Below the pieces are notes generated by a model. That model did no database searches, was not told where the DNA came from, and saw only the letters and a program-made list of their open reading frames with translations. Source: Leptonemataceae bacterium (GTDB lineage Bacteria; Spirochaetota; Leptospiria; Leptospirales; Leptonemataceae). From it: DNA of 64,000 nt. A program made the translations under genes and the position numbers. Every line of letters starts with the position of its first letter. The stretch's first letter is position 1. Below, piece by piece: positions 24,864 to 46,225 of the stretch. The stretch is taken from contig OZ245742.1 in NCBI GenBank assembly GCA_965227295.1, positions 2,816,001 through 2,880,000 on the forward strand. The letters run 5' to 3'.

Positions 24864-24909
24864 TGTTTGGAACCTCCGGAGATAGCTTCAATTTATTAGA
24901 AGATTTGTT

Positions 24910-28300: not shown

Positions 28301-28598
28301 TGGCCATCTCGAATCCGAGGAACGGCCGTTTTTCTTTGGTCTCTCGGTCGATCGTTTCCAGCAGGTCTTTGTAGACAGGATGCGCCTCCGGAAACCGAAG
28401 CAGCGCATCCAGCGTATACAGAGCGTCCATTTGATACGGCCGCATGGGATAACGCATGATGCTGGTTTCGATCAATTCCAGCAAGGCCAGGTTACCCTCG
28501 GCAGACCTGTACAGATCTTCGGCGATCTCCTGGCGCTTGCGCCGGTATTCCTTAATATTATCTGCAAGAAACTTTGCGTGTTTTTCGTAGTACGACAT
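25365..28598 (-). CDS. Type III restriction-like SF2 helicase/endonuclease (Res) with C-terminal S24 peptidase domain
   Basis: FEMATGSGKT, DEAHH, LDEGIDLPNI, QIIGRGVR, YYPDFL...VETKG, then LPVYSLKAAAG...VRGDSMEP...YTVK. Confidence 0.9.
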   Translation of the reverse strand: MSYYEKHAKFLADNIKEYRRKRQEIAEDLYRSAEGNLALLELIETSIMRYPMRPYQMDALYTLDALLRFPEAHPVYKDLLETIDRETKEKRPFLGFEMATGSGKTAVMGAAMYHLHKTRGIRNFLIITPASTDIYEKSIRNFSKGTAETVWGDDVHFNLVSGDNYQQSESLFDQDKDFSIFVFNISKFGKNAIRTSEAGESAAWKDSEENQVSIKQYLQNEPLVIIIDEAHHTQKSTSLNIIKAFRPDIILEFTATASESTKSRERRAQNIVYRYSIREFLEAGHGKLVRALALIDTEKSRARKTELPRVEKLKLITLLLVHMMKQESLDREGSRIKPLAFVKVKDDTKYARLVFEYLSEKVADEVEHLQFILGKIQTENYEIVHALRQLIQDRFSGDEEKIRKAFRGFAHRTIFYHGKSDTDTQRRYRNIRTNEVEIVVYMQRLDEGIDLPNIYSMAVINDTVTDARTHIKQIIGRGVRLPREKRLYDRSTDEWQRQTEMLHIICDPGRSFEELILSIQKEFGLNSLYLGMEHREVTVENEPRANLLDKLYFPRIKAQERVKKGVSLMGLVQDITKIVDEYCKHNCFQDGGELHLKFLPHSFFLETDVFAADFREQKREMQKRGDQDRQLNLNQRLIDDTYNTVQKILNCLPDTRAVRDCFTDYATELNARNIAYFYSDPADHLAARHRFVSTFSFFYRNYIEKHYFILNYDGPDEEEFGLAKSFVKETLKIPEDQRSLSRKTKKGTPIDILRHDYEKVKEMINAGYQFSGYENSLYPYVRFDSFPEFVAAETMDRIIGNSGNTKREFWVRNGRQVFFQYGGKRYYPDFLLHCSQRIFAVETKGEDFSENKKNLLLNRLNEQPLSGDYGGILLFENDTKALLKDDLYERIQLEGLLAISESNFGREQQLSYILREVEEKDKFRRYLPVYSLKAAAGKFSEAQEVHEDGWLRVPERIKGYTQDFFVAQVRGDSMEPRIPAGSYCIFQAGVGGSRQGLTVLVESREANDPENGGRYTVKVYRSEKIETPEELWKHERIILSPINNKHEPIILEKDAQRELKVIAVFHDILSVDSNSPP

Positions 28599-28601
28599 GC
28601 T

Positions 28602-30482: not shown

Positions 30483-30504
30483 AAATGAGAAATCCGGTTA
30501 AAAA

Positions 30505-33297
30505 TCAGCTGAGGGTGGCTGGTTTAGAACAAACTCTCGAATAGTAGCAGGACTCGCATCTCGATTTTTCCGTGGCGTGCGGGAATTCGTTGCCGCGGAT
30601 TTTATCTACGGTGTTCTCAATCAGCTCCCGGGTGTCCCGTAGGCGACCGGCTTGAAGTTCTTCCCGGGTCGGCTGGTTCCGGTCCATGTCGTAGATTTCC
30701 AGAAAGTCGGCATTCCGCCCGGTAAGCTCGGCATAGCCCATGGCGTATAGAGAAAGCTGTTCCATGGTGATTTTTGGATTGTTCTCGTGCAACTTTGACT
30801 TGAAATCGATGATGGTGATTTCGGCGGAACCGTCTTGGTTTTGTCGGCGCACCAGATCGATCCGACCGTTGATCACGATGTCCTCGTTGAGATCCAGTTC
30901 GATGTCCTTCTCGACGTACTCGATTTCCTGAAAGCTTGGCTGGCGCAATTCCAGGTATTGTTCGGTAATTCGTTGTGCATTCTTTCGAGAATCCGCAAGG
31001 GCCTCCTCGAATGCATGCGGTAAATGAAAATGTTTATCGAGAAGCGGGGCCAGATCTTCGTTTGTAAATTGCTCACCATCCAGTCCGCGACGGTGCAATT
31101 CCATGAGTACGCTGTGAATCGAGCGTCCGTAGCCGACCTGTACATTCAGGGGGCTCTCGAAACCATACATGCTGATCAGCTTAAAGCGATATGGGCATTC
31201 AAAGTAGTCGCGCAGAACACTGAAGTTGAGTATGATCTTATTCGTGTTGACGCGCGGCACGGGATGAGATCGGTCTCGATCCGAGTAGTCGCGATCGGGA
31301 TTCGAGAATAGAAAATCCGAATGACTGATCTCGTTGTAAAAGGCCGACTCGCGCTGATAGAGCCGATTGTTGAGAGGCGCACGGGATAAAAACAAGAACT
31401 TTTGCGCACGCGTGAGTGCAACATAGAACAGGCGCCGTTCATCTTCTTCTGAAACCTCGTATCGCTCCTGATCTACGACCAGATTGCGATCGAGCACATG
31501 CCACACGGATTTGCCGCCGTGCTTTTTCGACGGGAGATAGTTTCGGTTCAGCCCCGGTAGAAAGACCACCGGAAATTCCAGGCCCTTCGACTGGTGGATA
31601 GACATGAGCTGTACCGCGTTGGGCGTTCGGTAGCTATTGTTCAGCCAGCCCTCTGGATAGTAGTTCTCCGCGGCGTAACGCAAAAAGCTCATGAAGAACG
31701 AGAGCTTGAGCGGCGGTTTACTCTTGAAATTGATTTGTTCGTAGTCACCGATTACATGGCTGAACTGACCGAGATTATAGAAAGCAATCTCGGCCCGGGA
31801 ATTTGTATGTTCATCCTCGTCCGTGTCGGAATCGAAGAAAACCTCTTCCGTGATCCCGGACGTCTTCAGAAAGTCCTGATACACTGCCTGCAAGACGAAA
31901 CGATCGTAACTCAGTTTTTTCTTTGGCTCTGTTGCCTCAAGGCGTCTCCGAATCTTTTTTAGCTCCTGAATCGCCGCGTGCAGGCTTGTACGTTCCGTGT
32001 CGACACCCGCTTCTCGCCAGAGGTCTTCGATGACCGATTCATCGATTTGATTGCTCAAGAACTCGAAAATCGAGCGGGCGGCTCGCACTTCCGTGGTTTC
32101 AAATAGTTCATTTACGCCTGTTACAATAAATGGAATGCCTTCACGACGAAGTGTTTCGACCACAGTGGTTGCCTTGCTCCACTTTCGAAAAAGCAGGCAG
32201 AAATCGCTGTAATCCAACCCGCGGACGAATCCTTTTTCCTTGAGAGCTGTTCCGCGCAATTTGCGGATTGTGCGGACGATGAATTCATTTTCGGCCTCTT
32301 CGTTCTCAAAGGAATTGTAAAGAATGTCTCCCTTCTCGTAGGTTTGTGCTTCCGTATCACGCATTTCTTTGGGCAAGCGTTCCTGGTTGTTGCGGATAGC
32401 TCGCATGGCGACATCGATAATGCCTGCGGAACTGCGAAAGTTTTCCTCCAGTTTAATCGAACGGACTCCATCGTACCGATTGGCAAAGTCAATGATGTTG
32501 CGGATCTGGCTTCCGCGCCACTGGTAAATTGTTTGGTCGTCGTCTCCCACCACGCAAAGGTTCAGCCCTTTCGCAGCATCATACAAAGCCCGAATCAGTC
32601 GTTCCTGAATGGGATTTACATCCTGGTATTCGTCAACGATCAGATAACGTAGATCGGAGCAAACTCGCCCGGCGAACTCGGGATCGGTTTGCAATCGGCG
32701 CACCGTTTCGGTGAGAACCATCGTGAAATCAAAGTACGCGGACTCTTGCAGTGTCTTTTCGTACTGTTCTCTGGCCTCCGTCAAGTTAGCCGGAAGCTCC
32801 ACGTCCGATCGCAGCTCTGATTCGCGCAAAATCGACATGGCTGTTATGAAGTAATCGGTATCCTTATAACGTTCTAAATTTAGTTCGCGCATCCCGATTT
32901 CTTTGTATTTCCGATCAACGAAAAGTTTGAGTTTCACATCATCCAGAATCGAATATTTTTGAAATTCATACGCATGGTCCTGCAACATGCGCAGGCACCA
33001 GGCATGGATCGTTCCAATAAAAAGCTCGGCCATTCCCTGGATGCCGTTCTGGATACGCTGACGGGTAATTCGCAGAACGCGATTTTTTAGTTCCGCGGCG
33101 GCTTTCTCTGTGAAGGTGAAAGCGAGAATCGAGGAGGGGGTGACGCCGTTCTTTTGGAGGATGCGAACAATTCGCTCGGATATGACCTGCGTTTTTCCCG
33201 AACCGGCGCATGCGATGATTTGCAAATTATGATCTGTCGTTTCGATCGCTTCTTGTTGCCGGGTCGTATAGGAAATTCGGTTCAGGTTCTCGCTCAT
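30505..33297 (-). CDS. UvrD/PcrA-family helicase fused to PD-(D/E)XK nuclease with Cys cluster
   Basis: ACAGSGKT, VDEYQD, VGDDDQTIYQWRG, SIHQSKGLEF, RRLFYVALTRA; then FECPY, GRIDLV..IIDFKS, QLSLYA, CESCYYSRVC. Confidence 0.93.
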   Translation of the reverse strand: MSENLNRISYTTRQQEAIETTDHNLQIIACAGSGKTQVISERIVRILQKNGVTPSSILAFTFTEKAAAELKNRVLRITRQRIQNGIQGMAELFIGTIHAWCLRMLQDHAYEFQKYSILDDVKLKLFVDRKYKEIGMRELNLERYKDTDYFITAMSILRESELRSDVELPANLTEAREQYEKTLQESAYFDFTMVLTETVRRLQTDPEFAGRVCSDLRYLIVDEYQDVNPIQERLIRALYDAAKGLNLCVVGDDDQTIYQWRGSQIRNIIDFANRYDGVRSIKLEENFRSSAGIIDVAMRAIRNNQERLPKEMRDTEAQTYEKGDILYNSFENEEAENEFIVRTIRKLRGTALKEKGFVRGLDYSDFCLLFRKWSKATTVVETLRREGIPFIVTGVNELFETTEVRAARSIFEFLSNQIDESVIEDLWREAGVDTERTSLHAAIQELKKIRRRLEATEPKKKLSYDRFVLQAVYQDFLKTSGITEEVFFDSDTDEDEHTNSRAEIAFYNLGQFSHVIGDYEQINFKSKPPLKLSFFMSFLRYAAENYYPEGWLNNSYRTPNAVQLMSIHQSKGLEFPVVFLPGLNRNYLPSKKHGGKSVWHVLDRNLVVDQERYEVSEEDERRLFYVALTRAQKFLFLSRAPLNNRLYQRESAFYNEISHSDFLFSNPDRDYSDRDRSHPVPRVNTNKIILNFSVLRDYFECPYRFKLISMYGFESPLNVQVGYGRSIHSVLMELHRRGLDGEQFTNEDLAPLLDKHFHLPHAFEEALADSRKNAQRITEQYLELRQPSFQEIEYVEKDIELDLNEDIVINGRIDLVRRQNQDGSAEITIIDFKSKLHENNPKITMEQLSLYAMGYAELTGRNADFLEIYDMDRNQPTREELQAGRLRDTRELIENTVDKIRGNEFPHATEKSRCESCYYSRVCSKPATLS

Positions 33298-33451
33298 ATT
33301 ACCCAATACTGAAATCCATTCAGGCTCGCAATTGTCATTCGAAACGGCGCACCTGAAAGGAGGCTAATCGAAGGGGCATGCTGGGCCGATTCAATATATT
33401 GTTGCCAGTATTGATGTGCTATGTGATACAGAGCTAATCGCCCCCCTCCCA

Positions 33452-33615: not shown

Positions 33616-33694
33616 AACTTCCCGGCACATTACGTCACCCACCATCCTAACGAAATTCTAACACGCCGCCACTGACACCATGTCAGCAAAACGC

Positions 33695-33723
33695 TTGCAA
33701 AATGAACCGGCATTCCGTAACAT
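33695..33723 (+). promoter_or_regulatory. Candidate sigma70 promoter for the SGNH hydrolase gene
   Basis: TTGCAA-N17-TAACAT about 80 nt before the ATG at 33803. Confidence 0.45.
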
Positions 33724-33802
33724 AGCCAAAATCAACTACGAACGAAGTCACCGACGCAAGCCTTCAAATATACAGAGCCGGCGGAGACTTCAGGAGAGAA
33801 TC

Positions 33803-35092
33803 ATGCGAAATCTCAAAACCGCCCGGGGCGTGCAGACGCTCCTCGCAACGGCAATCATCGCCGCGTCGACGGCGGCGCCCCTCAGCGCGCAAAGCATCGG
33901 CGAATTATTCCGGAAGCCCGGCGTCATGGGCGACTCCCTGAGCCAGGGATTCTACGGCGCCAGCGTCGAAAAGAAGACGCAAGATTGGGCGTATCCGGTC
34001 ATCGTCTCAAAACAGGCGAACGCTAACGTTACCTACAACGTACTTAAGGGCCCGTACGTCAACCTCGAGGACTTCCTCAACGGCGACTGCGGCGTCTTCT
34101 GCCTGGGATCGTCGATCCTCGGCGGCAACGAATCCACCGTGGGCACGCCCACGCACGCCGGCATCACCGGTGCCGATTACACGAACGCGCTCTACACCAG
34201 CGGCACGTGCGAAGACATCACCGCGACGAAGTGGGAGAAGGACTGGTACTGGAAGAAGTGGTACTGGTATACGTATCGCTGGGTGCAGGTGCAGGATTGC
34301 CAGGATCCGGATTCGTACCACGAGCACGGTCTGCGGAACTCCGGCACGCAGATGCAAATCATGGAAAAGGTCCAGCCGTCGTTCATCTTCGGCAGTGTCG
34401 GCGCGAACCACGTGCTCTGCACGGCCCTGGCCACGAACCTCGACTGTCTCGACATGAACCGCTGGAAGCGCGACTCGGCCGAGGCCTTCCGTCGTATGCG
34501 GAACATCTCCAGCGTGCGCGGCGGTGTGGTCTTCACCGTGCCGAACGTTACGGCCATCTACTACGTGGAGCCCTACACCGATCCCAACGGTCGTTCGAAC
34601 TACAGCGGCCTCAAGGCCTTCTACAACACCAGCGTGGGCAGCCCGTCCGAGGTGCTCGACGCGAACGAGGTCGGCCAGATCACGAGTTTCCTGACCACGA
34701 TCAACAACGATCTTAAGAGCTACGCCGCTTCCAACAACTACGCCATCGTCGATGCTAAGGTAATCTTCGACGACATTAAAGAAAACGGTCGCCGCATTGC
34801 GCACAGCAGCGGTTGGTCCCCGGGCAACGCCGGCGCCAACTGGCCGCTTCCCGGCAAGCCGGGCATCTTCGGCCTCGACGGCGTGCATCCGAACCGCTAC
34901 GGCCACGCGGTCCTCGCCAACGAGCTCATCGCCGCCATCAACGGCGAGTACGGCGTGTCGATCCCGAAAGTGGACGAGTACGCGGCCTGGTACTACGATT
35001 CGCTGAACCGCAATCCCATCGACCTGAAGGGTTACCTCAGCGACAACATCTTCGGCCAGATTATCAGCTTCATCATTAACATCTTCGTGTAA
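33803..35092 (+). CDS. Secreted SGNH/GDSL-like hydrolase
   Basis: AGGAG RBS, signal peptide (LSA-Q), GDSLSQG, GAN, DGVHP. Confidence 0.8.
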
Positions 35093-35169: not shown

Positions 35170-37494
35170 TTATTGCAGCACGAATTCGCGCGAATAACCG
35201 GTGAACTTCTCGTAGCCCGTCCAGAAGAAGTACCAGCGCTTCGCGAGTCCGTTGTAACGAATGCGGTAGGTCCCCGGTTGCTGGTTGCGCACGAGCCAGG
35301 TGGCCGTGGCGAACGACTGATCCGACAGACTGCTGGAACCGCCGTTGCGTTCCCAGTCGAAGGCCGTGTAGGGATCGCCGTCCGTGGCGATGGTCTGCCA
35401 GTCGGAGCCGACTTTCTTCTGTACTTCAAGGAAGGTGTAGCTGTCCGGATCGTAGTACTGCGACAGCGAGCCGTCCATCTTCTTCACGAGCACCGTGCGT
35501 GGATGCGCGGCCTGGAAGCGCACGCTCACCGTGTCGTGGTCTTTCGAGTAGCTCGCCGCGGCGTCCTGCACGGCGTTGCCGAAGTTGCCGCCGTCCGTTA
35601 CGACTCCGTTGCTGGAAACCCAGGTTTCGATCAACTGCATCGTGGAAAGATCGGGCGGATTGGGTCCGGGATCGGCCGGTGTGTTTGCGGCCAGGTGGCC
35701 GGCCAGGCGATCCAGTTCCTGGGCTACGGCCGCCTCGGCGAACGGGCCGTAGATCGTAAAAGCGCCTTCGAAATGCTGCGCGGCGTACTCTTCGCGCGTC
35801 GTAAGGTACTGTCCGTAAGAGTTAGCCATGCCGGCGAGCACGAGATTCGCAACACCGGCGTTTGCAAGATTCGCGCTCACCGCGTCTTTGAGTCGGCGGC
35901 CGGTCATTGTCGTTACCTCGAACGGTGTGCCGAGAACACCGATGTCGCCGATGCGAATGATCTGCAACGGAATGACCACCGGTACGAACGGTGTGTTCGG
36001 ATTCGGAAACCAGAAATCATCCACCTCACCGACGGGCAACAGGGCGAACTTCTCTTTGTGACACTGGTCGTACTGATTCGTCTGTAACACGGCCGCGGCC
36101 AGCGGCCAGAGCGGTCCGAGGAACGCGGCAATGCCGTCGCCGTCGAGATCGTTGAAGTCGTACTTCGTTTGTACCCACTGTCCGTTTTCGTAGCTGTAGG
36201 TGTTCTTGATTTCACCCTCGGCCGCGAATTCCACGGGCGCGCCTTCTTCGTCGCCGGCCAGGAAACCCGCGCCGACCACGCCGACGCACGAGGCGGCCGT
36301 GGCGCTGTTGATCTCGTTATCCCAGGGCATGTAGTTCGTGCTGATGTAGCTGTTCGCCACGTCCACGTCGTTGAAGTTCACGTGACTGTGACGCACGTCC
36401 AGCGCGACCGGCACGCTCGTGTTCGCGGCGTTGTAGAGTTGCAGCGCCGCAACGGCCTGGCGTTCTCCGGCCACGATGGGATTTTCCTGGGCGTCGAGGC
36501 TTGCGTCGAGATCACTCGGCCGCAGGAACGGGAGCGTAATGTCCGTGGGATTCGGAATGTTCGGGCTTACATCGCCCATGGCGCCCTGAGCGAACGCGGC
36601 GACGAAGTTCCCGCCTTTCATTTTTTCGATCTTGTACGACGCGTAACCTTTGTTGTCGCCGTGAATGCGACGGTTCGCGATGTCCAGCGACGTTCCGTGT
36701 ACGGCGAACCAGTTGATGAGGCCGATCTCGGTACCGTCGAGCGCGTCGAAGCGCAGGAGCGTCATCTCCGCGTCGACGTTGTCCGAAAAACTGCCGGCGT
36801 CCGAGTTCTGGTCGTAGGCGATGGACGAACGATTGTAGGCGGCGTTGCTGACCGTGCCGGAAGCGTATTGAATGCTCGCGGCCTGGCGATTGTTGTAAGC
36901 ATCGATGATGGACTGCGTGATGCCGCGGACCACTACCTCGTAGTGCAGTTCGTCGAAGCCGGTGACGCCGTTGAACAGATTAAAGAGTGTATACCACGAG
37001 ATGTTCGACGTGGCCGCGTGGGTATGCGTGGCCGTGAGCATCACGTTTTCCGTATCGAACAATGAACCGTAGCCGAGGGTTGCCAGGCGTTTCACCACGC
37101 CGACCTTCACGCTCTGATACATGTGCAGTTGATCGGCGCTGACCAGGGCCACCATGCCCGTGCCCGGTTGTTCAATCACGAACGCGCGGCTGTACAGGCG
37201 CATGGCCAGGCCGGACATTTCGTCACCAGGGCTGTTGTAACCGGTGCTGGACTGAACGAACGGACCGGTGATGTCCGATTTTGCCGCGCCGACGTTGTAG
37301 GTAGACGGGCTTGTGGAAAGGCTGCGGCCCTGCAGGACCTGGCCTTGAATGATTTCCTGCGCAGCATCGACCGCGCCGGCATCGCCGCGCAGGGCGTTCT
37401 CTGTCGCGCCTTCACAGGCATTGAAGACGAGCAGGGCGCCGGCCGCAACGTAAACGCCGCGCCTTCGCAGGGATTGAAAAAACTGAGCTAACAT
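35170..37494 (-). CDS. Neutral/alkaline ceramidase, exported (lipoprotein-like signal)
   Basis: DITGP, RLYSRAF, ATHTHA, NWFAVHGTS, GDNKGYA, GDVSPN, FEVTTMTGRR, NSYGQYLTTREEY...EGAFTIYG; signal ending VFNAC. Confidence 0.92.
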   Translation of the reverse strand: MLAQFFQSLRRRGVYVAAGALLVFNACEGATENALRGDAGAVDAAQEIIQGQVLQGRSLSTSPSTYNVGAAKSDITGPFVQSSTGYNSPGDEMSGLAMRLYSRAFVIEQPGTGMVALVSADQLHMYQSVKVGVVKRLATLGYGSLFDTENVMLTATHTHAATSNISWYTLFNLFNGVTGFDELHYEVVVRGITQSIIDAYNNRQAASIQYASGTVSNAAYNRSSIAYDQNSDAGSFSDNVDAEMTLLRFDALDGTEIGLINWFAVHGTSLDIANRRIHGDNKGYASYKIEKMKGGNFVAAFAQGAMGDVSPNIPNPTDITLPFLRPSDLDASLDAQENPIVAGERQAVAALQLYNAANTSVPVALDVRHSHVNFNDVDVANSYISTNYMPWDNEINSATAASCVGVVGAGFLAGDEEGAPVEFAAEGEIKNTYSYENGQWVQTKYDFNDLDGDGIAAFLGPLWPLAAAVLQTNQYDQCHKEKFALLPVGEVDDFWFPNPNTPFVPVVIPLQIIRIGDIGVLGTPFEVTTMTGRRLKDAVSANLANAGVANLVLAGMANSYGQYLTTREEYAAQHFEGAFTIYGPFAEAAVAQELDRLAGHLAANTPADPGPNPPDLSTMQLIETWVSSNGVVTDGGNFGNAVQDAAASYSKDHDTVSVRFQAAHPRTVLVKKMDGSLSQYYDPDSYTFLEVQKKVGSDWQTIATDGDPYTAFDWERNGGSSSLSDQSFATATWLVRNQQPGTYRIRYNGLAKRWYFFWTGYEKFTGYSREFVLQ

Positions 37495-37551
37495 GAGCTT
37501 TCTCCTGGGATTCGTAAAATTTCTCTGAACGTAAGTTTATATATGTAAACA

Positions 37552-38244
37552 TTAGTTGCCGGAGTCTTCGAGCAGCGGCTCGCGGGGCTCCAGGTGTTCC
37601 GGCAGGTAGCTGCGCAGGTAGGCCACGGCGGCCCGCCCGGCCTCGCGAATGAGATCGTTGGTGATCTCTCCGTGCTCGCGAAAGGACAGCCGGAAGACGG
37701 AATCGATGATGGCGAAGGCGATGGCCACGGACTGTTCGCGCTGCGGCCACACGGGAACGTGGAAGCGTTCTTCCAGGCGCTCCAGAACGATGCGGGCGAT
37801 CTTCGCATCCACGGACTTGCCGACGTCCCGGGTTTCGGTGACGCCGCCGTTCATGCCGTAGATCAAACGCATGAGGGCCGGGTCTTCCCGGGTAATCTGC
37901 GCGCCCACGCTGATGAGGCAGCGCAGATAATCCTGCCAGGTGCGAAAACGTCGCGCGTCCACCTCGGCCAGGGCGTCCGCGAGGACCTCGGCATGAAAGA
38001 GCCGCAGACCCAGAAAGAGCGCCCCTATATTAGGAAAGAAATGATACGCCGAAGCCCGGGGGATACCGGCCCGCTCGCAGGCCAGGGCAAACGTCACTTC
38101 TTCCGGCGGCAATTCCCGCAGCAATTCCCGGGTGGCGCTGAGCAGCTCCGTACGGCGGCTCCGGCCCTGCTGGGAGGTGAATTTGAACTTTTTCTGGCTC
38201 AAATCCGGCGAAAGCGAGGCGTCCATGATCCGTTCGTCGTTCAT
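37552..38244 (-). CDS. TetR/AcrR family transcriptional regulator
   Basis: VTFALACERAGIPRASAYHFFPN helix-turn-helix. Confidence 0.93.
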   Translation of the reverse strand: MNDERIMDASLSPDLSQKKFKFTSQQGRSRRTELLSATRELLRELPPEEVTFALACERAGIPRASAYHFFPNIGALFLGLRLFHAEVLADALAEVDARRFRTWQDYLRCLISVGAQITREDPALMRLIYGMNGGVTETRDVGKSVDAKIARIVLERLEERFHVPVWPQREQSVAIAFAIIDSVFRLSFREHGEITNDLIREAGRAAVAYLRSYLPEHLEPREPLLEDSGN

Positions 38245-38247
38245 ATG

Positions 38248-38365
38248 ATCGACTTTTGTCGGGTTACGAGAAATATTTCAACCAGAAAACGGATAGAAGT
38301 CGGTTTTTTAATCGACAAAAGTTGATTTATGTGCAGAATCTGATCTGCGAGTCGACAAAAGTCGG
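38248..38365. promoter_or_regulatory. Three palindromic operator-like sites (TCGAC-W4-GTYG)
   Basis: ATCGACTTTTGTCGG 38248-38262, ATCGACAAAAGTTGAT 38311-38326, GTCGACAAAAGTCGG 38351-38365, all in the divergent intergenic region. Confidence 0.75.
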
Positions 38366-38387
38366 GTCTCGCGATGCGGAGAAGGAT

Positions 38388-40655
38388 ATGGGCGGCACAC
38401 AGACAGCAAAGGCCATTCTGGCCGTGGATCTCGGGACCTCGGGCTGTAAGGCGGCCCTGGTGGATCGTTCCGGCGCGGTCCTCGGCTGGGCCTACGAACC
38501 CGTGGAACTGCACATTCTGCCGGAGCACGGTGCCGAGCAGAATCCGGAGGACTGGTGGCGGGCTCTCGTAACTTCTACTCGTCGCCTGTTAGCAGAAACC
38601 GGGACGTCGCCGACGGATGTCGCCGCGGTCGCCTGTTCGACCCAGGGCGAGTGCACCGTACCGGTGGACGCCGAAGGCAACGCGCTCATGAACGCCGTCC
38701 TCTGGATGGACATGCGCGGCGAAGATGCCGTTCGTCGTCGCGCGGGCGGGGCGATTCGCGTGGCCGGCTACGGCGCCACGAAGCTGTTGCGCTGGATTCG
38801 ACTTACCGGCGGGGCACCGGCGTTGTCCGGCAAGGACCCGGCGGGCCACATGCTGTTTATTAAAGAAGCGTTCCCCGACATCTACCGGCGTACCTACAAG
38901 TTTCTCAACGCCCTCGACTACATGAACCTGCGCCTTACCGGTCGGTTCACCGCCACACCGGACTCCATCCTCACCTCCTGGGTTACCGACAACCGCAAGC
39001 CCGATCGCATTGCCTATCATCCGTCCCTGCTCAAGCAGAGCGGCATCGATCCGGACAAATTCCCGGAACTCGTCCGCTGTACGGATGTCCTGGGCCCGCT
39101 GCAACCGGCGGCGGCGCAGGAACTCGGCCTCTCCCCGCAGACCGTCGTCGTCGCCGGCGCCATCGACACCACGGCCGCGGCCGTGGGCAGCGGGGCCGTG
39201 GGGGATTACGAACCGCACCTTTACATCGGGACGTCGTCCTGGATTGCCGCCCACGTTCCGTTCAAGAAGACCGACGTCGCCTCCGGTATCGCCTCGGTAC
39301 CCTGCGCGCTCTCGGATCGGTACCTGTTGATCGCCACGCAAACTTCCGCCGGTGGTAACTTAACGTACCTTAAAGAACGCATTCTGTATCATCAGGACGA
39401 ACTTCTACAGGATGAAAACGTTCCCGATGTCTACAAAATCCTGGATCGCATTGCCGAACGTACCCCGGCGGGCAGTCGCGGTTTGCTCTACACCCCGTGG
39501 TTGTACGGTGAACGCTGTCCGGTGGATGAGGGCACGCTGCGCGCGGGCCTGTTCAATCTATCCCTGGAGCATTCCCGGGAGGATGTGATTCGCGCCTTCC
39601 TCGAAGGTGTGGCCCTGAACACGCGCTGGATGTTGAAACCCGTGGAGCGTTTCCTCGGCCGTCCGGTGCGTTCCATCAACATTGCCGGCGGCGGCGGCGT
39701 TTCCCGGGTGTGGTGCCGCATCTTCGCCGACGTCCTCGGCGTTACCATCCGCCAGCTCAAAGAGCCCGTGCAGGCCAATGCCGTGGGCGCGGCCTGGATC
39801 GCCCGGGTGGGCCTCGGAGAAATGAGCTTCGCCGACGTCGCCGGTCGCACGGACATTCGCGAAGAGTTCGTACCGGATGCGGACAACGCTCCCGTATACA
39901 ATCAGGCCTTTCAAAACTTTCAGGAGATTCACCGCCGCCTCGGCCCACTGTATCGAAAGATCAACGCGCCGGAACGCACCAAAACTATGAAACACGCAAA
40001 CAATCCTTCAATTGATATTAGCAAGTTCGACGCCGTGCGCCGCGAAGTCGTGGCGGCGTGTCTGCGCCTGGCCGACATGGGATACCTGGCCGGCATCGGC
40101 GGGAACATGGCCGTGCGCGCCGGGCAGGGCTGCTTCGCCGTGACGCCGTCCGCCGCGGACTACTACAACCTGACGCCCGAGGACATCTGCATCCTGCGCC
40201 TGGACAACCTGGAAAAAATCGCCGGGGACATGCAGCCCTCCGTGGAGAGCGGCCTGCATGCGGCGCTGCTGAACCGCCGCCCGGACCTGAATGCCAGCAT
40301 CCATACGCACCAGCCCGTGGCGAGCGGGGTGGCTTTGCTCGCGGTGCCGCTGCCGGTCGAAGACCCCGAGGCCCGCCAGGCCCTGGGCGATACGATCGTG
40401 CTCACGCCGTACGCCCCGTCCGGCACGACCTGGCTTGCGAAGTCCTTCGCGAAAGTTCTGCGCGACGACGTGAACGGCTATCTGCTTCGCAACCACGGCG
40501 TGGTCTGCGGCGGGCCGGATCTGGAGCAGGCCATCCGCAACGTGGGCTACATCGAGTCCGAGTCCGCCCGATTCTTGCGTGAAGAAATCATCCGGGCCCG
40601 GGGCGCGGACGCCGCCGATAACGCGACGCGCCGGGCCCTGGAAGCCGTTTCGTAA
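38388..40655 (+). CDS. FGGY carbohydrate kinase fused in frame to a class II aldolase (FucA-like)
   Basis: Kinase: DLGTSGCKA, WMDMR, GAIDT, IGTSSW, LYGERCP, AFLEGVA. Aldolase from ATG 39987: GGNM, TPS, PSVESGLH, HTHQP, LRNHGVV. Confidence 0.9.
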   Translation: MGGTQTAKAILAVDLGTSGCKAALVDRSGAVLGWAYEPVELHILPEHGAEQNPEDWWRALVTSTRRLLAETGTSPTDVAAVACSTQGECTVPVDAEGNALMNAVLWMDMRGEDAVRRRAGGAIRVAGYGATKLLRWIRLTGGAPALSGKDPAGHMLFIKEAFPDIYRRTYKFLNALDYMNLRLTGRFTATPDSILTSWVTDNRKPDRIAYHPSLLKQSGIDPDKFPELVRCTDVLGPLQPAAAQELGLSPQTVVVAGAIDTTAAAVGSGAVGDYEPHLYIGTSSWIAAHVPFKKTDVASGIASVPCALSDRYLLIATQTSAGGNLTYLKERILYHQDELLQDENVPDVYKILDRIAERTPAGSRGLLYTPWLYGERCPVDEGTLRAGLFNLSLEHSREDVIRAFLEGVALNTRWMLKPVERFLGRPVRSINIAGGGGVSRVWCRIFADVLGVTIRQLKEPVQANAVGAAWIARVGLGEMSFADVAGRTDIREEFVPDADNAPVYNQAFQNFQEIHRRLGPLYRKINAPERTKTMKHANNPSIDISKFDAVRREVVAACLRLADMGYLAGIGGNMAVRAGQGCFAVTPSAADYYNLTPEDICILRLDNLEKIAGDMQPSVESGLHAALLNRRPDLNASIHTHQPVASGVALLAVPLPVEDPEARQALGDTIVLTPYAPSGTTWLAKSFAKVLRDDVNGYLLRNHGVVCGGPDLEQAIRNVGYIESESARFLREEIIRARGADAADNATRRALEAVS

Positions 40656-40692
40656 TTACAACATCAAACTAACTTAGACTGAGGAAAATCTA

Positions 40693-42177
40693 ATGACCAC
40701 CGCAACCATGGAAACCACGGCGCCGTCCGCGCCGGAAAAAACGCAACAGTACGCCATTTCGGAGTGGCACAACACCGAGGAGATCCTGGCCCGACTCAAG
40801 GAACTGACGAAGGCCCCGCTGCGGCCCATTCGCCGCGACAAAATGAACGAGGTCCTCGAGTACTTCGAAAAAAACTGCCGGCGTTCGAAGGCCATCGCCG
40901 AAGAAGCGGAGCGCTACATTCCCGGCGGCGTACAACACAACCTGGCGTTTAACTATCCCTTTCCCCTGGCCATGGACCGCGCCGAGGGCGCACACCTGCG
41001 CGACGTCGACGGCAACGAGTACATCGACTTCCTGCAGGCCGGCGGGCCCACGCTGCTCGGTTCGAACTATCAACCGGTGCGCAAAAAAATCATAAAACTT
41101 CTAAATGAATGCGGGCCGGTCACCGGTCTCCTGCACGAGTACGAACACAAGCTTGCGGAAATCGTAAGCCGGCACATGCCCGGTGTGGAAATGTTTCGCA
41201 TGCTCGGTTCCGGCACCGAGTCCGTCATGGCCGCCATTCGTCTGGCCCGGGCGTACACCGGAAAGAAGCAGGTCATCAAAATCGGCGGCGGTTATCACGG
41301 CTGGTCCGATCAAATGGTCTACGGCATGCGCATTCCCGGAACCGGACGGCGCGAAGCCGCGGGCATTCCGCGCGGGGCGACGGCGCATACGCAAGAATGT
41401 TTTCCCAACGACATCGGCGCGCTCAAGCGCAAGCTCTGGTTGAATCGTTTGCGCGGCGGCACCGCGGCGGTGATCGTGGAACCGCTGGGTCCGGAGAGCG
41501 GCACGCGTCCGGTCTACTTCGACTACAACCGCCAGTTGCGCGAGGTCTGCGATCAGTTCGGCGCGTTGTTGATCTTCGACGAAGTCGTCACCGGCTTTCG
41601 CCTGGGCCTCGGCGGGGCCCAGGGTTACTTCGGAGTGAATCCTGATTTGACCGTCTTCGGCAAGTGCCTCACCGGCGGTTATCCCATGGCGGGCGGCGTC
41701 GGCGGTCGGCGCGAAGTGATGATGCTCTTCGCCGGCGGTATCAGCTCCATGGGCAAGCGCGCCTTCGTCGGCGGTACCCTTTCCGCGAACCCGCTGTCCT
41801 GCGCGGCCGGTTACTATTCGATCCAGGAAATGGAGCGCACCAACGCCGCGGTGAAAGCCGGCCGCGCCGGGGATCGCCTGTGTCGCGGACTGCAGGAAAT
41901 CGTCGAGCGCCTGAAGCTGCCCTACGTCGTTTATAACCAGGGCTCCATCGTGCACCTCGAAACTTCCGGTGTGTTGCTGTTAAGCATGCGCAATCCCATT
42001 AAGGTGCTGCGCGAAGCCAAAGAGCGCAAACACATGATGGAAGAGATGGGCGCGGCTTACTCGGCGCACGGCATGATCACCCTGGCGGGCAGTCGGATCT
42101 ATACCAGCATGGCCGACACGGACGACATCATCGACGAGGCGTTGAATCGTTTCGAAAGCGTTCTGCAAATGGTCTGA
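40693..42177 (+). CDS. Class III PLP aminotransferase (GSA-aminomutase-like fold)
   Basis: DVDGNEYIDF, SGTESV, GGYHG, LIFDEVVTGFR, FGKCLTGG, GGTLSANP; 494 aa with an N-terminal extension. Confidence 0.92.
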   Translation: MTTATMETTAPSAPEKTQQYAISEWHNTEEILARLKELTKAPLRPIRRDKMNEVLEYFEKNCRRSKAIAEEAERYIPGGVQHNLAFNYPFPLAMDRAEGAHLRDVDGNEYIDFLQAGGPTLLGSNYQPVRKKIIKLLNECGPVTGLLHEYEHKLAEIVSRHMPGVEMFRMLGSGTESVMAAIRLARAYTGKKQVIKIGGGYHGWSDQMVYGMRIPGTGRREAAGIPRGATAHTQECFPNDIGALKRKLWLNRLRGGTAAVIVEPLGPESGTRPVYFDYNRQLREVCDQFGALLIFDEVVTGFRLGLGGAQGYFGVNPDLTVFGKCLTGGYPMAGGVGGRREVMMLFAGGISSMGKRAFVGGTLSANPLSCAAGYYSIQEMERTNAAVKAGRAGDRLCRGLQEIVERLKLPYVVYNQGSIVHLETSGVLLLSMRNPIKVLREAKERKHMMEEMGAAYSAHGMITLAGSRIYTSMADTDDIIDEALNRFESVLQMV

Positions 42178-42205
42178 ACAAAGTACGCAACAAAGGGCAA
42201 ACGTT

Positions 42206-42898
42206 ATGAACTCCACCAACACACTCGCAACCGTCGGCGCCCCGGCCGGACTCTCGCATCCGGAGGTGCGCGCAGGCCTGTTGTCTTCGCTTCGCCGTCT
42301 GCACGATAAGGGGCTGTGCGGCCCCGCCGAAATGAGTCTGTCCCTGCGCATCCCCGGCACCGAGGACATGGCGCTGTTGGTTACGGCCCCGGGAGACGGG
42401 CAGGCGCAGGCCGAGGACATTCGCATCCTTTCCCGGGCGACGCAGTACGACGACGAACAGGCGGACATCCATGCGACGATCTATCGCATGCGTCCCGATG
42501 TCGGTGCCGTGGTCCGCAACCGCCCGCGTTGGGGCAGCGTGCTGCACGATGTAAAACAACCCATGCCGGCGATCTTCGACGAACAGGCCCGGCAGATGGG
42601 CGCTTCGGTGGAACGCCTCGACGGCCGGCTGCAACGTTTGCGTCGCGGCGCGAACGTCTTTCTGTACGGCGGCGACGTGTTGTGCCTGGGCATGACTCGC
42701 GACCGCAGCGTCTTCACCTGCGAGCTGCTGGAGAAGTGCGCCGAGGCTTACGTCCTGGCCACGGCCACGGGGCGCCGCTTGCGGCGCATCCCCTGGTTCG
42801 TTCGACTCATTGCCGGGCGGCGTCTCTTAAAAGACGAGCGCAAGTCCGCGGCGGCTTACGCCCGGGGCGAGGTGCCCACGGGATTTACGGCTTACTGA
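42206..42898 (+). CDS. Class II aldolase/adducin-fold protein, metal ligands degenerate
   Basis: SLSLRIPG, IHATIYRMRPDVGAVV match the family, but HxH reads RNR and NHG reads GGD. Confidence 0.75.
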   Translation: MNSTNTLATVGAPAGLSHPEVRAGLLSSLRRLHDKGLCGPAEMSLSLRIPGTEDMALLVTAPGDGQAQAEDIRILSRATQYDDEQADIHATIYRMRPDVGAVVRNRPRWGSVLHDVKQPMPAIFDEQARQMGASVERLDGRLQRLRRGANVFLYGGDVLCLGMTRDRSVFTCELLEKCAEAYVLATATGRRLRRIPWFVRLIAGRRLLKDERKSAAAYARGEVPTGFTAY

Positions 42899-42924
42899 AA
42901 ACGCGCAACGCAACGGAGACGATC

Positions 42925-44121
42925 ATGCAAACTACTAACTATCGCTGGGTGGTACTTACGGTCTTTACGCTCTCGGCCGGCATTTCACAGATGCTCTGGC
43001 TGAACTTCGCGCCCCTGCTGTCGATGATCCAGGAACGCTACGGCGTCAGTGAACTGGAGGCGTCGCTGTTGATCCTGGTCTTCCCGGCGATCTATGTCGT
43101 GTTGTCGCTCCATTCCGGAGCCATGATCGATCGGCGCGGTTATCGTTTCACCGTGGGGCTCGGCGGAATCATCATGGCGGTGTTTTCGTGCGTCCGCATT
43201 TACGATGCGAGCTTTACGGCGCTGCTGATCGGCCAGACCGGTATCGCCGTGGCCCAGCCCTACGTCGTCAACGGAATCTCCAAACTCGTGGCGGATTGGT
43301 ACGAAGAAGAACACCACGGCCTCGCCACCGGCATCGGAACCATCGGCATGTTTTTGGGCATGGCCGTGGCACTCGCGCTGACACCGGCCCTGGTATCGGC
43401 GGTGGGACTGCAACGAACCATGATCATCTTCGCCCTGATGTCCGGCTTCTCGGCCGGGGCCTTCCTGCTGCTCGCGCGCGAGAACCCCGCGCAAAACGAG
43501 TCGGCGGGTACTTTCGGCGAGGGCGCCTTCGCCCCCTTGTTTCAAAACGGCAACCTGATTCTTTTGTTCGTCCTCTCACTGCTCGCCCTGGGATTTTTTA
43601 ACGGCCTCACTACCTGGCTCGAACCGATCCTCGCCGTGCACGCGAATCTCGACGCGGAGCAGGCCGGCCTCGCCGGCGGCATGTTGATCATCGGCGGCAT
43701 CGTCGGTTCGGCGGTGCTACCGGCGCTGTCGGACGCGTTTCGCCGGCGCAAGCCGTTCCTGTTGATCTCGGCCACGGCCAGCATCATACTGACCCTGCCG
43801 CTCTGCACTACCACTAACTTTACCTGGCTGCTTGTTTACGCCGGTCTCATGGGATTCTTTTTTCTGCCCGGATACGCCCTCTTGTTCGCCATGACCGAAG
43901 AACATGCCGGTGCCGCCCATGCCGGCAGCGCCGCGGGCGTGTTGATGCTCGCCGGGAACGGCGGCGGGGTCGTGGTGGTGCTCTTAATGGAGGCGGTGCG
44001 CGGCGGTGACAGTTCCTGGATCAACGCCATTTATTTGATGATGGCATTGATGGCGGCCGCGGTGCTGCTCGCGCTCAAGCTCGGCGAGTCCCTCGGTCGC
44101 GGTCCGGCTCACGACGCCTGA
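42925..44121 (+). CDS. MFS transporter
   Basis: About 12 hydrophobic segments; GAMIDRRGYR and LSDAFRRRK loop motifs; GGAG RBS. Confidence 0.92.
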   Translation: MQTTNYRWVVLTVFTLSAGISQMLWLNFAPLLSMIQERYGVSELEASLLILVFPAIYVVLSLHSGAMIDRRGYRFTVGLGGIIMAVFSCVRIYDASFTALLIGQTGIAVAQPYVVNGISKLVADWYEEEHHGLATGIGTIGMFLGMAVALALTPALVSAVGLQRTMIIFALMSGFSAGAFLLLARENPAQNESAGTFGEGAFAPLFQNGNLILLFVLSLLALGFFNGLTTWLEPILAVHANLDAEQAGLAGGMLIIGGIVGSAVLPALSDAFRRRKPFLLISATASIILTLPLCTTTNFTWLLVYAGLMGFFFLPGYALLFAMTEEHAGAAHAGSAAGVLMLAGNGGGVVVVLLMEAVRGGDSSWINAIYLMMALMAAAVLLALKLGESLGRGPAHDA

Positions 44122-44141: not shown

Positions 44142-45224
44142 TCACGGTGCCCGGCGTTTTCGCCACTGACCGGGGGACATGCCGGTGCGGGACTTGAACA
44201 ACGCCTGGAACGCGGACATGGAACGAAAGCCGCAGGCCAGGGCGACGTCGAGCACACTCTCTTGCGGATGCTCGACTAACCTCTGCTCCGCGGCGATTAA
44301 GCGGTACTCGTTGACGAAGGCGTTGAAGTTCCGACCGAACTCGCCGTTGATGAATTCCGACAACTGCGCCTGGTTCAGGCCCATGTAATCGGCCAGGTCG
44401 CCCAGGTTCAGATCCTCGTTGAGATAGACCCGTTCCACGACCATGAGGCGTTCCAGTTCGGCGCGCAGCGGCGCCGGATCGCGTTCGCCCAGGCGCGAGC
44501 GGCGCTTCCGGTTCTCGCGGATGCTCGCGGCAAACCGTTCCGTGATGTGCGGCCGGCCCGCACGCAAGACGAGCAGCAAACCCTGGAAAATCGAATGCGA
44601 CCAGAGAAAAAGCCAGGGCTTCCAGTAGATGTCCAGGTTCCGAAAAATCTCGAGAACGACGGCCGTGAGAATGATCAGAGTCCCCGCCGATAAAAACAGC
44701 TTTTGCCGTGACGATAGCCGCGGGCGGCCCGGGTAAATGTACCGCACGAAGATCCACACCAGGTAGACACCGGCAACGATGACACCGAGGGTATTGAGGC
44801 CGCGCAGAATCAGCACCGCGTTCATGCTCGCATCCATTTCGACGAAGCGCAGTCGAGTCTCCGGTTCTACCACGGCCAGGTACAACCAGGTCGTCGCCGC
44901 CAGCAGCCCGGGCAACAGGTGGCGCAACTCGCGACGGAACTCGATGGTTTTCTCCGGCTGCAGGAGTTCGCGGCAATAGAGATACAGCAGCGGTCCGCTC
45001 CAGAACACGAACGGGATCGTTGCGAACTTAACGTACGGAAACATCGGCATGAGTCCGGCCTTCACGAGAGAACCTTCCAGATGCCAGCACGCCGCGCACA
45101 AGGAGTAGGCCGCGAAGTAGCGGGCCCTCGGCTCGCGCAAATTCAACAAACTTGCCGCCGCATGCATCAGGGCCAGCGGCACGCCGGAGAGCAGGACGAT
45201 CTGATGACTGTCGAGGGCGATCAT
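44142..45224 (-). CDS. AraC family regulator with N-terminal membrane domain
   Basis: Several TM helices then YLNEDLNLGDLA...NFNAFVNEYR...VALACGFRSMSAFQALFK..TGMSP. Confidence 0.9.
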   Translation of the reverse strand: MIALDSHQIVLLSGVPLALMHAAASLLNLREPRARYFAAYSLCAACWHLEGSLVKAGLMPMFPYVKFATIPFVFWSGPLLYLYCRELLQPEKTIEFRRELRHLLPGLLAATTWLYLAVVEPETRLRFVEMDASMNAVLILRGLNTLGVIVAGVYLVWIFVRYIYPGRPRLSSRQKLFLSAGTLIILTAVVLEIFRNLDIYWKPWLFLWSHSIFQGLLLVLRAGRPHITERFAASIRENRKRRSRLGERDPAPLRAELERLMVVERVYLNEDLNLGDLADYMGLNQAQLSEFINGEFGRNFNAFVNEYRLIAAEQRLVEHPQESVLDVALACGFRSMSAFQALFKSRTGMSPGQWRKRRAP

Positions 45225-45299
45225 GACGAACGCGCCAGCCTTACGGTTCCTGGATCATGATCAAGGATTTTCAGGTACTGCCTGGATCATGATCGAAGG
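45219..45299. promoter_or_regulatory. Repeated GATCATGA(TC) sites between the AraC and desaturase genes
   Basis: CCTGGATCATGATC at 45249 and 45281 (32-bp spacing); GATCATGA also at 45219. Confidence 0.6.
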
Positions 45300-45352
45300 T
45301 GCGCCGCGCCCGGAGTTCGGTTAGGATCTTCGCATCTGCACAGGAGATGACT

Positions 45353-46225
45353 ATGAAGATCTTACAATTTTTTCACAGGTACGCACAGCTCTGGTTTCTC
45401 GCAGCGATGATCGGCTACGGCCTCGCCGCGATACAGGCGGGCTGGAACCTGAAGATTGCCGCTCCGGTCGGCGCCGTGCTCGCGGTGCTCGTGCTTTCGA
45501 TGTTGGAGCGTCTGGCTCCGGCGCGGCGCGGTGAAAACGACAACGCCGGAGAAACGGCGCGGCATTTCTTTTTCTTCGGCCTCGGCGCCGTGATGGATAA
45601 CCTCGGACGCGCCTTGGCCGTATTCACCGCGGTGAGTCTCGCCGGCGGCGAACGATTTCTGGACCTTCCGTTGTGGCTGGAATTGATTGCGGCCGTCTAC
45701 ATCGCCGAGTTCTTCGCATACTGGTTCCATCGGCTGAGCCATCGCGAGGGCTGGCTCTGGTCCGTACACAGCATCCATCATTTGCCGGAGAAGGTGAATC
45801 TTACGAACAACTTTCTCATGCATCCGCTAAACATATTTTTTCTGAAAGTTATGCGGGCGACGCCGCTGCTGCTGCTCGGTTTTTCCCAGGAGGCCGTCTT
45901 CCTGCACGGCCTGTTCTCCCTGGCGGTCGCGTTTTCGGTGCACGCGAACACCGGCGGACGTCTCGGTGTCTGGAATTACGTGATCGGCACGGCGGAGCTG
46001 CATCGCATGCATCACAGCGTCGATCCGGACGAAGCCGGCAATCACGGCACTGTCGTTCCGTTGTGGGATCAGATCTTCGGTACGTTTCGCTACAATGCGC
46101 ACGGCGAGCCGGCACAGATCGGCGTGGTGCGGGAAGAGCGGGGCCGGTATCCCGTCACGATCGCCGGCATGCTTGTGTATCCGTTGCGCTGGTCTTCGTT
46201 GATTGCGGGGTGGCGCCTCCGCTGA
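45353..46225 (+). CDS. Sterol desaturase / fatty acid hydroxylase superfamily protein
   Basis: His boxes YWFHRLSH, HSIHH, HAN, HRMHH; WDQIFGT; AGGAG RBS. Confidence 0.9.
   Translation: MKILQFFHRYAQLWFLAAMIGYGLAAIQAGWNLKIAAPVGAVLAVLVLSMLERLAPARRGENDNAGETARHFFFFGLGAVMDNLGRALAVFTAVSLAGGERFLDLPLWLELIAAVYIAEFFAYWFHRLSHREGWLWSVHSIHHLPEKVNLTNNFLMHPLNIFFLKVMRATPLLLLGFSQEAVFLHGLFSLAVAFSVHANTGGRLGVWNYVIGTAELHRMHHSVDPDEAGNHGTVVPLWDQIFGTFRYNAHGEPAQIGVVREERGRYPVTIAGMLVYPLRWSSLIAGWRLR

Follow-up and report, generated by a model that had tools for sequence, protein, structure and literature searches.

How bacteria dispose of the sphingoid bases that are released from ceramides is still an open question, and SphBCD of Pseudomonas aeruginosa is the sole system studied so far. 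Sphingoid bases abound in litter from plants and fungi and are antimicrobial on animal epithelia. The question is raised again by a locus of a Leptonemataceae bacterium (Spirochaetota; GenBank assembly GCA_965227295.1, contig OZ245742.1), where the gene of a neutral/alkaline ceramidase is transcribed away from genes of a sugar kinase, an aldolase and an aminotransferase. This locus occupies positions 35170-44121 of the stretch of 64,000 nucleotides that was analysed (contig positions 2,816,001 to 2,880,000; hereafter the window, to which coordinates refer unless another record is named). The kinase, aldolase and aminotransferase constitute an undescribed, widespread catabolic module. Tentatively, and with a little less than an even chance in our estimate, the locus can be read as a TetR-controlled divergon for the use of ceramides containing 4-hydroxy sphingoid bases.

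The gene order proposed in the initial annotation is confirmed by open reading frame and domain calls, which agree on a tetR-ceramidase operon that diverges from a run of kinase-aldolase, class III aminotransferase, aldolase-like and major facilitator superfamily (MFS) transporter genes (Table 1). The tetR gene lies upstream of the ceramidase gene on the same strand with a gap of exactly 57 nt, as first described, and the spacers within the plus-strand run measure 37, 28 and 26 nt. A region of 143 nt between tetR and the kinase gene is common to both divergent operons. Three operator-like palindromes had been placed in this region; three sites are present, but they are inverted repeats (CGAC-N4-GTCG) and not perfect palindromes. 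A search for CGACAAAAGTYG with at most one mismatch returned three matches in the window, all exact and all inside 38250-38364, with a chance expectation of 0.82 per whole window. Given that three or more matches anywhere also arose in 8 of 100 shuffles, the signal is the clustering within 115 nt and not the count. The divergent layout is kept in the closest relative (L001) and in a second relative (L003). Three copies of CGAC-WTTT-GTCG are carried by the equivalent spacer of L001 (7370-7488 of that record), and clear repeats were not found in that of L003. Judged from sequence, the TetR-ceramidase operon and the kinase operon have a divergent, co-regulated layout with putative operators.

A genome scan identified a relative of the aminotransferase in at least 599 species, and the best-scoring 80 loci were examined. 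Neighbouring genes were counted at E ≤1e-8 and at least 50% query cover with all 80 loci as the denominator, 50 of which have flanks of 5 kb or more on each side. Comparison of the window proteins with these loci by tblastn found the kinase, aldolase and aminotransferase together in nearly all loci with enough flank. The aldolase and aminotransferase are fused in P0024 and P0030 and are read in a single frame in five loci. Since the three enzymes are adjacent nearly everywhere, and are fused as kinase-aldolase here and as aldolase-aminotransferase elsewhere, they form one unit and constitute one conserved module. This module is abundant in metagenome genomes of Chloroflexota and Acidobacteriota, the titles of which name fen, bog and groundwater. 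The claim that the route lacks an earlier description also stands, as full-text searches, which covered subscription journals in part, found neither the module nor a breakdown of sphingoid bases by transaminase, kinase and aldolase described.

In the window, the kinase and aldolase are encoded by a single reading frame (FGGY_N E 6.2e-37, FGGY_C E 1.1e-22, Aldolase_II E 3.9e-38) that starts at the ATG at 38388, with GGAGAAGGA just before it. The assignment of a FucA-like aldolase is upheld, as the domain is intact and, among named families, is matched best by ribulose-1-phosphate aldolase (101 bits, cut-off 300) and FucA (91.4 bits, cut-off 264), each below its cut-off. Alignment with E. coli FucA revealed that the glutamate, which is both catalytic and metal-binding, the three histidine metal ligands (HTH, His) and the GGN and TPS phosphate site are kept; these ligands and phosphate-site residues are invariant in 29 of 29 clade A sequences (the clade is described below). 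FucA Tyr113 is not kept and aligns with proline. The best structure match is PDB 6btd (E 2.7e-24), an entry described as a 5-deoxyribose disposal aldolase, whose substrate is presumably 5-deoxy-D-ribulose-1-phosphate. By annotation, the closest named relatives of the domain are aldolases for ribulose-1-phosphate, L-fuculose-phosphate and deoxyribose-phosphate. Aldolases of the ribulose-1-phosphate/FucA type cleave the 3R,4R configuration expected here. The fusion of kinase and aldolase is unique to this genome, with none of the 21 other loci with adjacent kinase and aldolase genes being fused. An in-frame methionine (MKHANN...) stands at the junction within the 38388-40655 frame, and the fusion may therefore reflect a lost kinase stop codon, or else an assembly error.

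The aminotransferase, which depends on pyridoxal 5'-phosphate (PLP), is the most conserved gene product of the module, with 72-84% identity to its 119 best database matches, which come from several phyla; across the phyla that carry the module the range is 68-84%. Its best sequence matches are to HemL, including the best matches in the PDB (E 3.8e-68; 233 bits for PDB 4e77). The PLP lysine K324 is invariant in the family and aligns with the lysine of the HemL GK, so that the GK..GG context is kept. However, neither HemL cut-off is reached (275.9 against 527.3 for TIGR00713; 297.5 against 398 for NF000818), the N-terminus is longer than that of HemL by about 60 conserved residues, and the setting is a catabolic operon. 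Furthermore, HemL GGVxSPVRAF aligns as GGVQHNL-AF, so the SPVRAF arginine, which binds the substrate carboxylate in HemL, is absent; the replacement GGVQHNLAFNYPFP at this site is invariant in a 12-sequence family alignment. A HemL-paralogue identity was rejected on the missed cut-offs and the lost arginine. The enzyme is thus predicted not to be HemL, and to be closer to HemL than to FumI, the class III enzyme with which it had been compared.

The third gene of the run had been described as a second aldolase, an assignment that has to be withdrawn. This protein (hereafter AldoLike) has neither the Glu/His/His/His ligands nor the GGN and TPS phosphate motifs, and a catalytic aldolase was rejected because RNR stands in place of HTH and all ligand and phosphate columns are lost. 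No ligand column is conserved among 29 AldoLike sequences, which share an invariant motif of their own (FDEQxR). The relationship with true aldolases is evident from hhalign (probability 98.2%, identity 17%, every ligand and phosphate column lost) and from the AlphaFold model (predicted local distance difference test score 91.6), for which Foldseek gave template-modelling scores of about 0.7 to FucA and epimerase structures. By sequence and model, AldoLike is therefore a pseudo-enzyme that has kept the aldolase fold and lost the catalytic and phosphate residues. Its gene lies directly 3' of the aminotransferase gene in 28 of the 80 loci.

The ceramidase is the gene product that would link the module to sphingolipids. 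Its catalytic N-terminal domain and C-terminal domain are both nearly full length in Pfam, and the translation contains a GDVSPN stretch, which we take to be a motif of the ceramidase family. The score against the NCBIfam equivalog for neutral ceramidase of the CerN type is 283.3 bits, below the cut-off of 1200, and the protein is best regarded as a family member with predicted ceramide hydrolysis and not as a CerN equivalog. It is probably an exported lipoprotein, with an N-terminus that ends in ...LLVFNAC. L001 and L003 have an orthologue at the corresponding place (69% and 61% identity, respectively). Upstream of the L003 ceramidase gene, a class I/II aminotransferase considered as serine-palmitoyltransferase-like was ruled out by its match to valine-pyruvate transaminase (506 bits, cut-off 467). 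A plasmid search seeded with the ceramidase returned six records.

Conserved linkage of the ceramidase was borne out in part. A ceramidase gene lies beside the module in only four of the 80 loci (L001, L003, L053 and L063), yet a second, independent case is found in Aquipseudomonas alcaligenes (L053, L063), where a DUF1302-DUF1329-ceramidase operon diverges from a kinase-aldolase-aminotransferase-AldoLike operon. The A. alcaligenes ceramidase gene closes its operon, which gives the locus the same architecture as in the window with a ceramidase of 31% identity; at 508.5 bits this ceramidase is also below the CerN equivalog cut-off of 1200. By a rough estimate, four ceramidases among about 1,150 flank open reading frames are far more than a single copy in a genome of about 4,000 genes would lead one to expect. 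The aminotransferase phylogeny was examined with a quick maximum-likelihood tree of the window and 78 loci (L008 and L032 were omitted because their aminotransferases are fragments shorter than 430 aa). Clade A of this tree has 29 rows, all with AldoLike, from Pseudomonadota, Acidobacteriota, Myxococcota and Spirochaetota, and the ceramidase-linked rows form two separate clades inside it. The ceramidase divergons thus appear to have arisen twice in unrelated lineages. The sphingolipid link of the module, which rests on these two independent neighbourhood cases and on chemistry, is plausible.

On this reading of the locus as a divergon for 4-hydroxy sphingoid bases, the exported ceramidase would hydrolyse (phyto)ceramide to a fatty acid and a 2-amino-1,3,4-triol long-chain base, which the MFS transporter would import. 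The HemL-like aminotransferase would then convert the C2 amino group to a ketone, giving a 5-alkyl analogue of D-ribulose (3R,4R), and the FGGY kinase would phosphorylate C1, although either of these two steps could come first. The zinc aldolase would cut between C3 and C4 to yield dihydroxyacetone phosphate (DHAP) and a long-chain aldehyde (pentadecanal from t18:0), which would be oxidised and enter beta-oxidation. AldoLike could serve as an accessory subunit or binding protein. The proposed sequence, from phytosphingosine through the 2-oxo compound and its 1-phosphate to DHAP and aldehyde, is chemically sound. The stereochemical argument of the initial annotation also agrees with our own derivation, in which 2-oxo-phytosphingosine is a (3R,4R)-1,3,4-trihydroxy-2-ketone, like D-ribulose. 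The route would be specific for 4-hydroxy bases because the aldolase step is impossible without the 4-hydroxyl group. Which substrate is used, in what order the steps run, what they yield and which ligand TetR binds are inferences. The suggestion of a sphingoid catabolic route accordingly stands on the gene identities, the co-regulated layout and the chemistry, and has lost the expected FumI kinship, the second catalytic aldolase and a common linkage with ceramidases.

Table 1. Predicted features of the ceramidase locus and its surroundings, with window coordinates.
Feature	Coordinates	Strand	Evidence and remarks
Neutral/alkaline ceramidase	35170-37494	-	PF04734 E 1.9e-114; PF17048 E 6.2e-27
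TetR-family repressor	37552-38244	-	TetR_N E 7.4e-06; TetR_C_22 E 9.7e-08
Three operator-like inverted repeats, CGAC-N4-GTYG	38250-38261, 38313-38324, 38353-38364		Pattern search
FGGY kinase (~38388-39990) fused to class II zinc aldolase (~39990-40655)	38388-40655	+	One 755-aa open reading frame; FGGY_N, FGGY_C, Aldolase_II
Class III (HemL-like) PLP aminotransferase	40693-42177	+	Aminotran_3 PF00202 E 2.8e-51
AldoLike, aldolase-fold pseudo-enzyme	42206-42898	+	Aldolase_II E 1.7e-05, 25.2 bits (cut-off 22.2)
MFS transporter	~42925-44121	+	MFS_1 E 6.6e-47; ~10 hydrophobic segments
AraC-type regulator, hydrophobic N-terminal half	44142-45224	-	HTH_18 E 1.5e-20; divergent from hydroxylase gene
Fatty-acid-hydroxylase superfamily membrane di-iron enzyme	45299-46225	+	FA_hydroxylase E 5.2e-27
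Secreted GDSL-like hydrolase candidate	33680-35092	+	Lipase_GDSL E 7.6e-4, 20.1 bits (below cut-off 23.6); convergent with ceramidase gene
Type III restriction helicase fused to S24 peptidase domain	25365-28598		
Type III methyltransferase	28602-30482		PADLOC MTase_III E 3.4e-107
UvrD-helicase/PD-(D/E)XK nuclease	30505-33306		GajB- or DRT-helicase-like

The company that the module keeps elsewhere bears on the nature of its substrate. TetR is found beside it in 58 of the 80 loci and an MFS transporter in 54, followed by an MdlD-like aldehyde dehydrogenase (15 loci), a TorF/Gcw porin (8), an AraC regulator with an Arabinose_bd domain (7), a 2-hydroxyacid dehydrogenase (7), DUF1302 (5), DUF1329 (4), a TonB receptor (4) and OMP_b-brl_4 (3). 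The AraC regulators of the proteobacterial loci have QhpR, GliR and CypR as their nearest NCBIfam models, all below cut-off. Taken together, the TetR, AraC, MdlD-like aldehyde dehydrogenase, TorF/Gcw porin, DUF1302 and TonB neighbours fit an amphiphilic or hydrophobic substrate and a hydrophobic aldehyde product. A fatty-acid hydroxylase is encoded beside the module in three loci (L001, L004 and L077). In L001 (1744-3162 of that record) the orthologue of the window hydroxylase (69% identical) has a Polyketide_cyc2/START-like lipid-binding domain fused to it, and its gene is followed by an alpha/beta hydrolase gene and then the ceramidase gene; this fusion points to a hydrophobic substrate.

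Several findings weigh against the sphingoid reading. Ceramidase was not found within the fetched flanks of 76 of the 80 loci, and the census is itself biased to close relatives because the 80 are the best-scoring of at least 599. Clade B of the tree, with 50 of 79 rows (Chloroflexota, Actinomycetota and Verrucomicrobiota), has neither ceramidase nor AldoLike, and its large Chloroflexota component is devoid of a lipid clue. The kinase and transporter resemble handlers of small polar molecules in their sequences. The best model for the kinase is XylB (247 bits), all other FGGY specificity models (FucK, RhaB, GlpK and others) scoring lower, yet it remains below the family cut-off of 380; xylulokinase phosphorylates the end of the sugar far from the keto group, which also counts against the proposed C1 phosphorylation. 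The nearest solved relatives of the MFS transporter are the choline/ethanolamine transporters FLVCR1/2 (E 2.4e-15). The kinship with FumI fails on sequence, with a match of E 7.1e-27 over residues 61-340 to PDB 6hbs, the one structure available for a transaminase of a sphingoid analogue, that ranks below 34 other PDB sequences and far behind the HemL structures. The degeneration of AldoLike counts on the same side, and neither sphingosine nor sphinganine is open to cleavage by the route before a 4-hydroxyl group has been added. The lack of hydrophobic segments in the module enzymes (hydropathy) might be added to this list, and we regard it as neutral.

These findings would suit the catabolism of an amino-polyol or amino-alditol that is small and water-soluble (a tetritol, pentitol or hexitol of the 2-amino-2-deoxy type, or a comparable amino alcohol). 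Such a compound would be transaminated to a ketose, phosphorylated and cleaved to DHAP and a short aldehyde, and the ceramidase would either be unrelated or serve as the amidase for an N-acylated form. Catabolism of a small amino-polyol is the main rival, given the rare ceramidase linkage, the small-polar character of the kinase and transporter, the absence of FumI likeness and the lack of a lipid clue in clade B; soluble module enzymes and a GH35-like glycosidase near one Acidobacterium locus would also accord with it. We consider it unlikely, although it deserves serious attention. We know of no abundant natural 2-amino-1,3,4-triol other than the 4-hydroxy sphingoid bases. The regulators are of the TetR and AraC types and not the LacI, DeoR or GntR types usual in sugar operons (LacI occurs in one cluster of four loci), and the aldehyde dehydrogenases are benzaldehyde-like and not of the lactaldehyde/glycolaldehyde type. 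The double origin of the ceramidase divergons is a further point for ceramides over small amino-polyols. If the substrate were nonetheless a small amino-polyol, the module would remain an undescribed catabolic route.

Another amine-bearing lipid with vicinal hydroxyls could be degraded by the same mechanism, for example amino-bacteriohopanepolyols, the backbones of sphinganine-analogue mycotoxins, or N-acylated forms that a ceramidase homologue deacylates. The lipid-type context would serve such a compound equally, as would the abundance of the module in the Chloroflexota and Acidobacteriota genomes. However, terminal amines would yield aldoses that need an isomerase, which the core module does not have, and 1-deoxy bases of the fumonisin type offer no C1 hydroxyl for phosphorylation. 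Neutral ceramidases, moreover, are specific for ceramide, and we hold such lipids to be an improbable substrate. The reverse, biosynthetic direction, in which DHAP and an aldehyde would be joined to a ketose-1-phosphate and aminated to an amino-polyol (phosphate), would provide a sphingoid-like base without serine palmitoyltransferase, the ceramidase being reversed as an N-acylase. The aldolase and transaminase reactions are reversible and aldolase-aminotransferase fusions exist, but the ATP-dependent kinase, repressor-controlled divergon, uptake-type MFS transporter, aldehyde dehydrogenases and outer-membrane uptake genes are hallmarks of catabolism, and the ceramidase carries an export signal; this direction is very improbable. 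Finally, a second HemL for haem synthesis beside an ordinary pentulose/fuculose operon, as suggested by the many family members named glutamate-1-semialdehyde 2,1-aminomutase in their sources and by the HemL structures that lead the PDB matches, is scarcely credible given both missed cut-offs, the family-invariant GGVQHNLAFNYPFP in place of the SPVRAF arginine, the fusion of the aminotransferase to aldolase in some genomes and its strict synteny with kinase and aldolase in about 80 loci.

The divergon for 4-hydroxy sphingoid bases can be set beside several known systems. The routes for L-fucose and D-arabinose (FucK, FucA), the haloarchaeal ribulose-1-phosphate aldolase and 5-deoxyribose salvage (DrdK/DrdI/DrdA) have a similar module, in which an FGGY-type or other sugar kinase precedes a class II zinc aldolase whose products are DHAP and an aldehyde. 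By our derivation, the expected substrate shares their 3R,4R configuration. In contrast to these routes, the module has an aminotransferase instead of an isomerase at its front, a TetR regulator and a pseudo-aldolase partner; Tyr113 of FucA is replaced, all equivalog cut-offs are missed, and the presumed substrate has a long alkyl tail. The eukaryotic route through sphingosine kinase and sphingosine-1-phosphate (S1P) lyase also starts from a ceramidase-released base, phosphorylates C1 and ends in a fatty aldehyde. S1P lyase, a PLP enzyme, cleaves between C2 and C3 to give phosphoethanolamine and a C16 aldehyde, whereas the cleavage proposed here lies between C3 and C4 and would give DHAP and a C15 aldehyde, with nitrogen lost by transamination. 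Neither a DAGK-type (diacylglycerol kinase) kinase nor a PLP S1P-lyase domain was found by Pfam among the ten proteins encoded at 33.7-49.7 kb of the window.

FumI of the Sphingopyxis fumonisin cluster also belongs to the class III PLP enzymes and takes the 2-amino group off a sphinganine-like polyol (PMC3136697). What FumI and the present aminotransferase have in common is their fold and the notion that a sphinganine analogue is deaminated, whereas the sequences are distant and the clusters differ in content. The FumI substrate could not continue to a kinase and aldolase because it is a 1-deoxy base. In P. aeruginosa, two reports place the neutral ceramidase in one regulon (SphR; cerN, sphA, sphBCD) with genes for sphingoid-base removal and an AraC-type regulator nearby (PMC3900636, PMC11893366). 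This system resembles the locus in its co-regulation of a bacterial ceramidase with sphingoid removal and in the nearby AraC-type regulator. SphBCD consists of a periplasmic cytochrome c, a flavin mononucleotide (FMN) oxidoreductase and a threonine-aldolase-like PLP enzyme, families that differ from those of the module, and the cytochrome c, FMN oxidoreductase, threonine-aldolase-like and SphA porin families were not found among the same ten proteins. The product of SphBCD was still given as unknown in 2025 (PMC11893366).

A broader proposal, which is possible but on balance doubtful, is that at least 599 species (Spirochaetota, Pseudomonadota, Acidobacteriota, Myxococcota, Chloroflexota, Actinomycetota and Bacillota) share a pathway that handles 4-hydroxy sphingoid bases from plants, fungi and animal epithelia in the manner of sugars. 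Transamination, phosphorylation at C1 and a class II aldol cleavage would take these bases to DHAP and an odd-chain fatty aldehyde, independently of S1P lyase and SphBCD. In some lineages a hydroxylase-family enzyme would feed sphinganine into the pathway by C4-hydroxylation, and AldoLike would be a lipid-handling subunit. If the sphingoid reading of the locus holds, it would provide a third chemical logic of sphingoid cleavage, at C3-C4, and would assign a function, in hundreds of species, to a highly conserved family mis-annotated as 'HemL' and to the kinase and aldolase that go with it. Leptospirales, which depend on fatty acids, could draw carbon (DHAP and C15 acid) and nitrogen from ceramides. 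In addition, the enzymes could be of use for sphingoid-base synthesis or analysis.

Two genes beyond the transporter may extend the system. The AraC-type regulator, with three 19-residue windows of hydropathy ≥1.86 within residues 9-194, would appear to belong to it; the AraC/hydroxylase pair adjoins the cluster in L001 too, on the opposite side. This pair may add the 4-hydroxyl group to sphinganine, which makes the hydroxylase a speculative candidate for a sphingoid C4-hydroxylase. The hydroxylase scores 86 bits against the OlsE model (cut-off 475), and a PDB sequence search with it gave no match. A search of the ESM Atlas with AldoLike and the hydroxylase returned family-level names only. 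Membership of the GDSL-like hydrolase on the ceramidase side is doubtful, and none of the 80 loci showed a counterpart of it. The hydroxylase gene is immediately followed by an oppositely oriented gene (46233-49655) for a protein of 1140 aa with an LruC domain/DUF4842 and RCC1 repeats.

Further observations concern the module in other records. DUF1302 is encoded beside it in L053 (3737-7290 of that record), L063, L029, L047 and L004, with DUF1329 in all of these except L004; both are outer-membrane proteins, and the loci are from Pseudomonadaceae and Duganella. The module is also found on two plasmids, of Burkholderia ambifaria and Butyrivibrio fibrisolvens. On the former it is accompanied by TetR, an MFS transporter and a porin, and the operon ends with genes of a short-chain dehydrogenase/reductase and an aldehyde dehydrogenase. 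Just after the latter gene (13509-13760 of L082) is an 83-aa DUF962 fragment cut by an IS5 element. A DUF962 protein of yeast, Mpo1, has a part in the degradation of phytosphingosine, and the proximity may be a coincidence. In the rumen Gram-positive B. fibrisolvens (plasmid pNP243), a gene of a small GtrA-family membrane protein lies between the aldolase and aminotransferase genes (8551-8973 of L081).

Elsewhere in the window, a DUF1564 protein is encoded as well as the LruC-domain protein, and the closest relatives of the window genes are Leptospirales and Leptospira records. The 16S (5770-7276) and 23S (7700-10614) rRNA genes are separated by a spacer of about 420 nt that holds no tRNA gene, and neither a 5S gene nor a tRNA gene was found anywhere in the 64 kb. 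These are followed by the gene of a 755-aa protein (10801-13068) with an N-terminal eCIS_core domain (PF13699, E 1.8e-22), no other recognised domain and no PADLOC match. Adjoining the cluster is an island of low GC content (24000-33400; 0.49-0.52 compared with about 0.60) that carries the three defence-type genes listed in Table 1.

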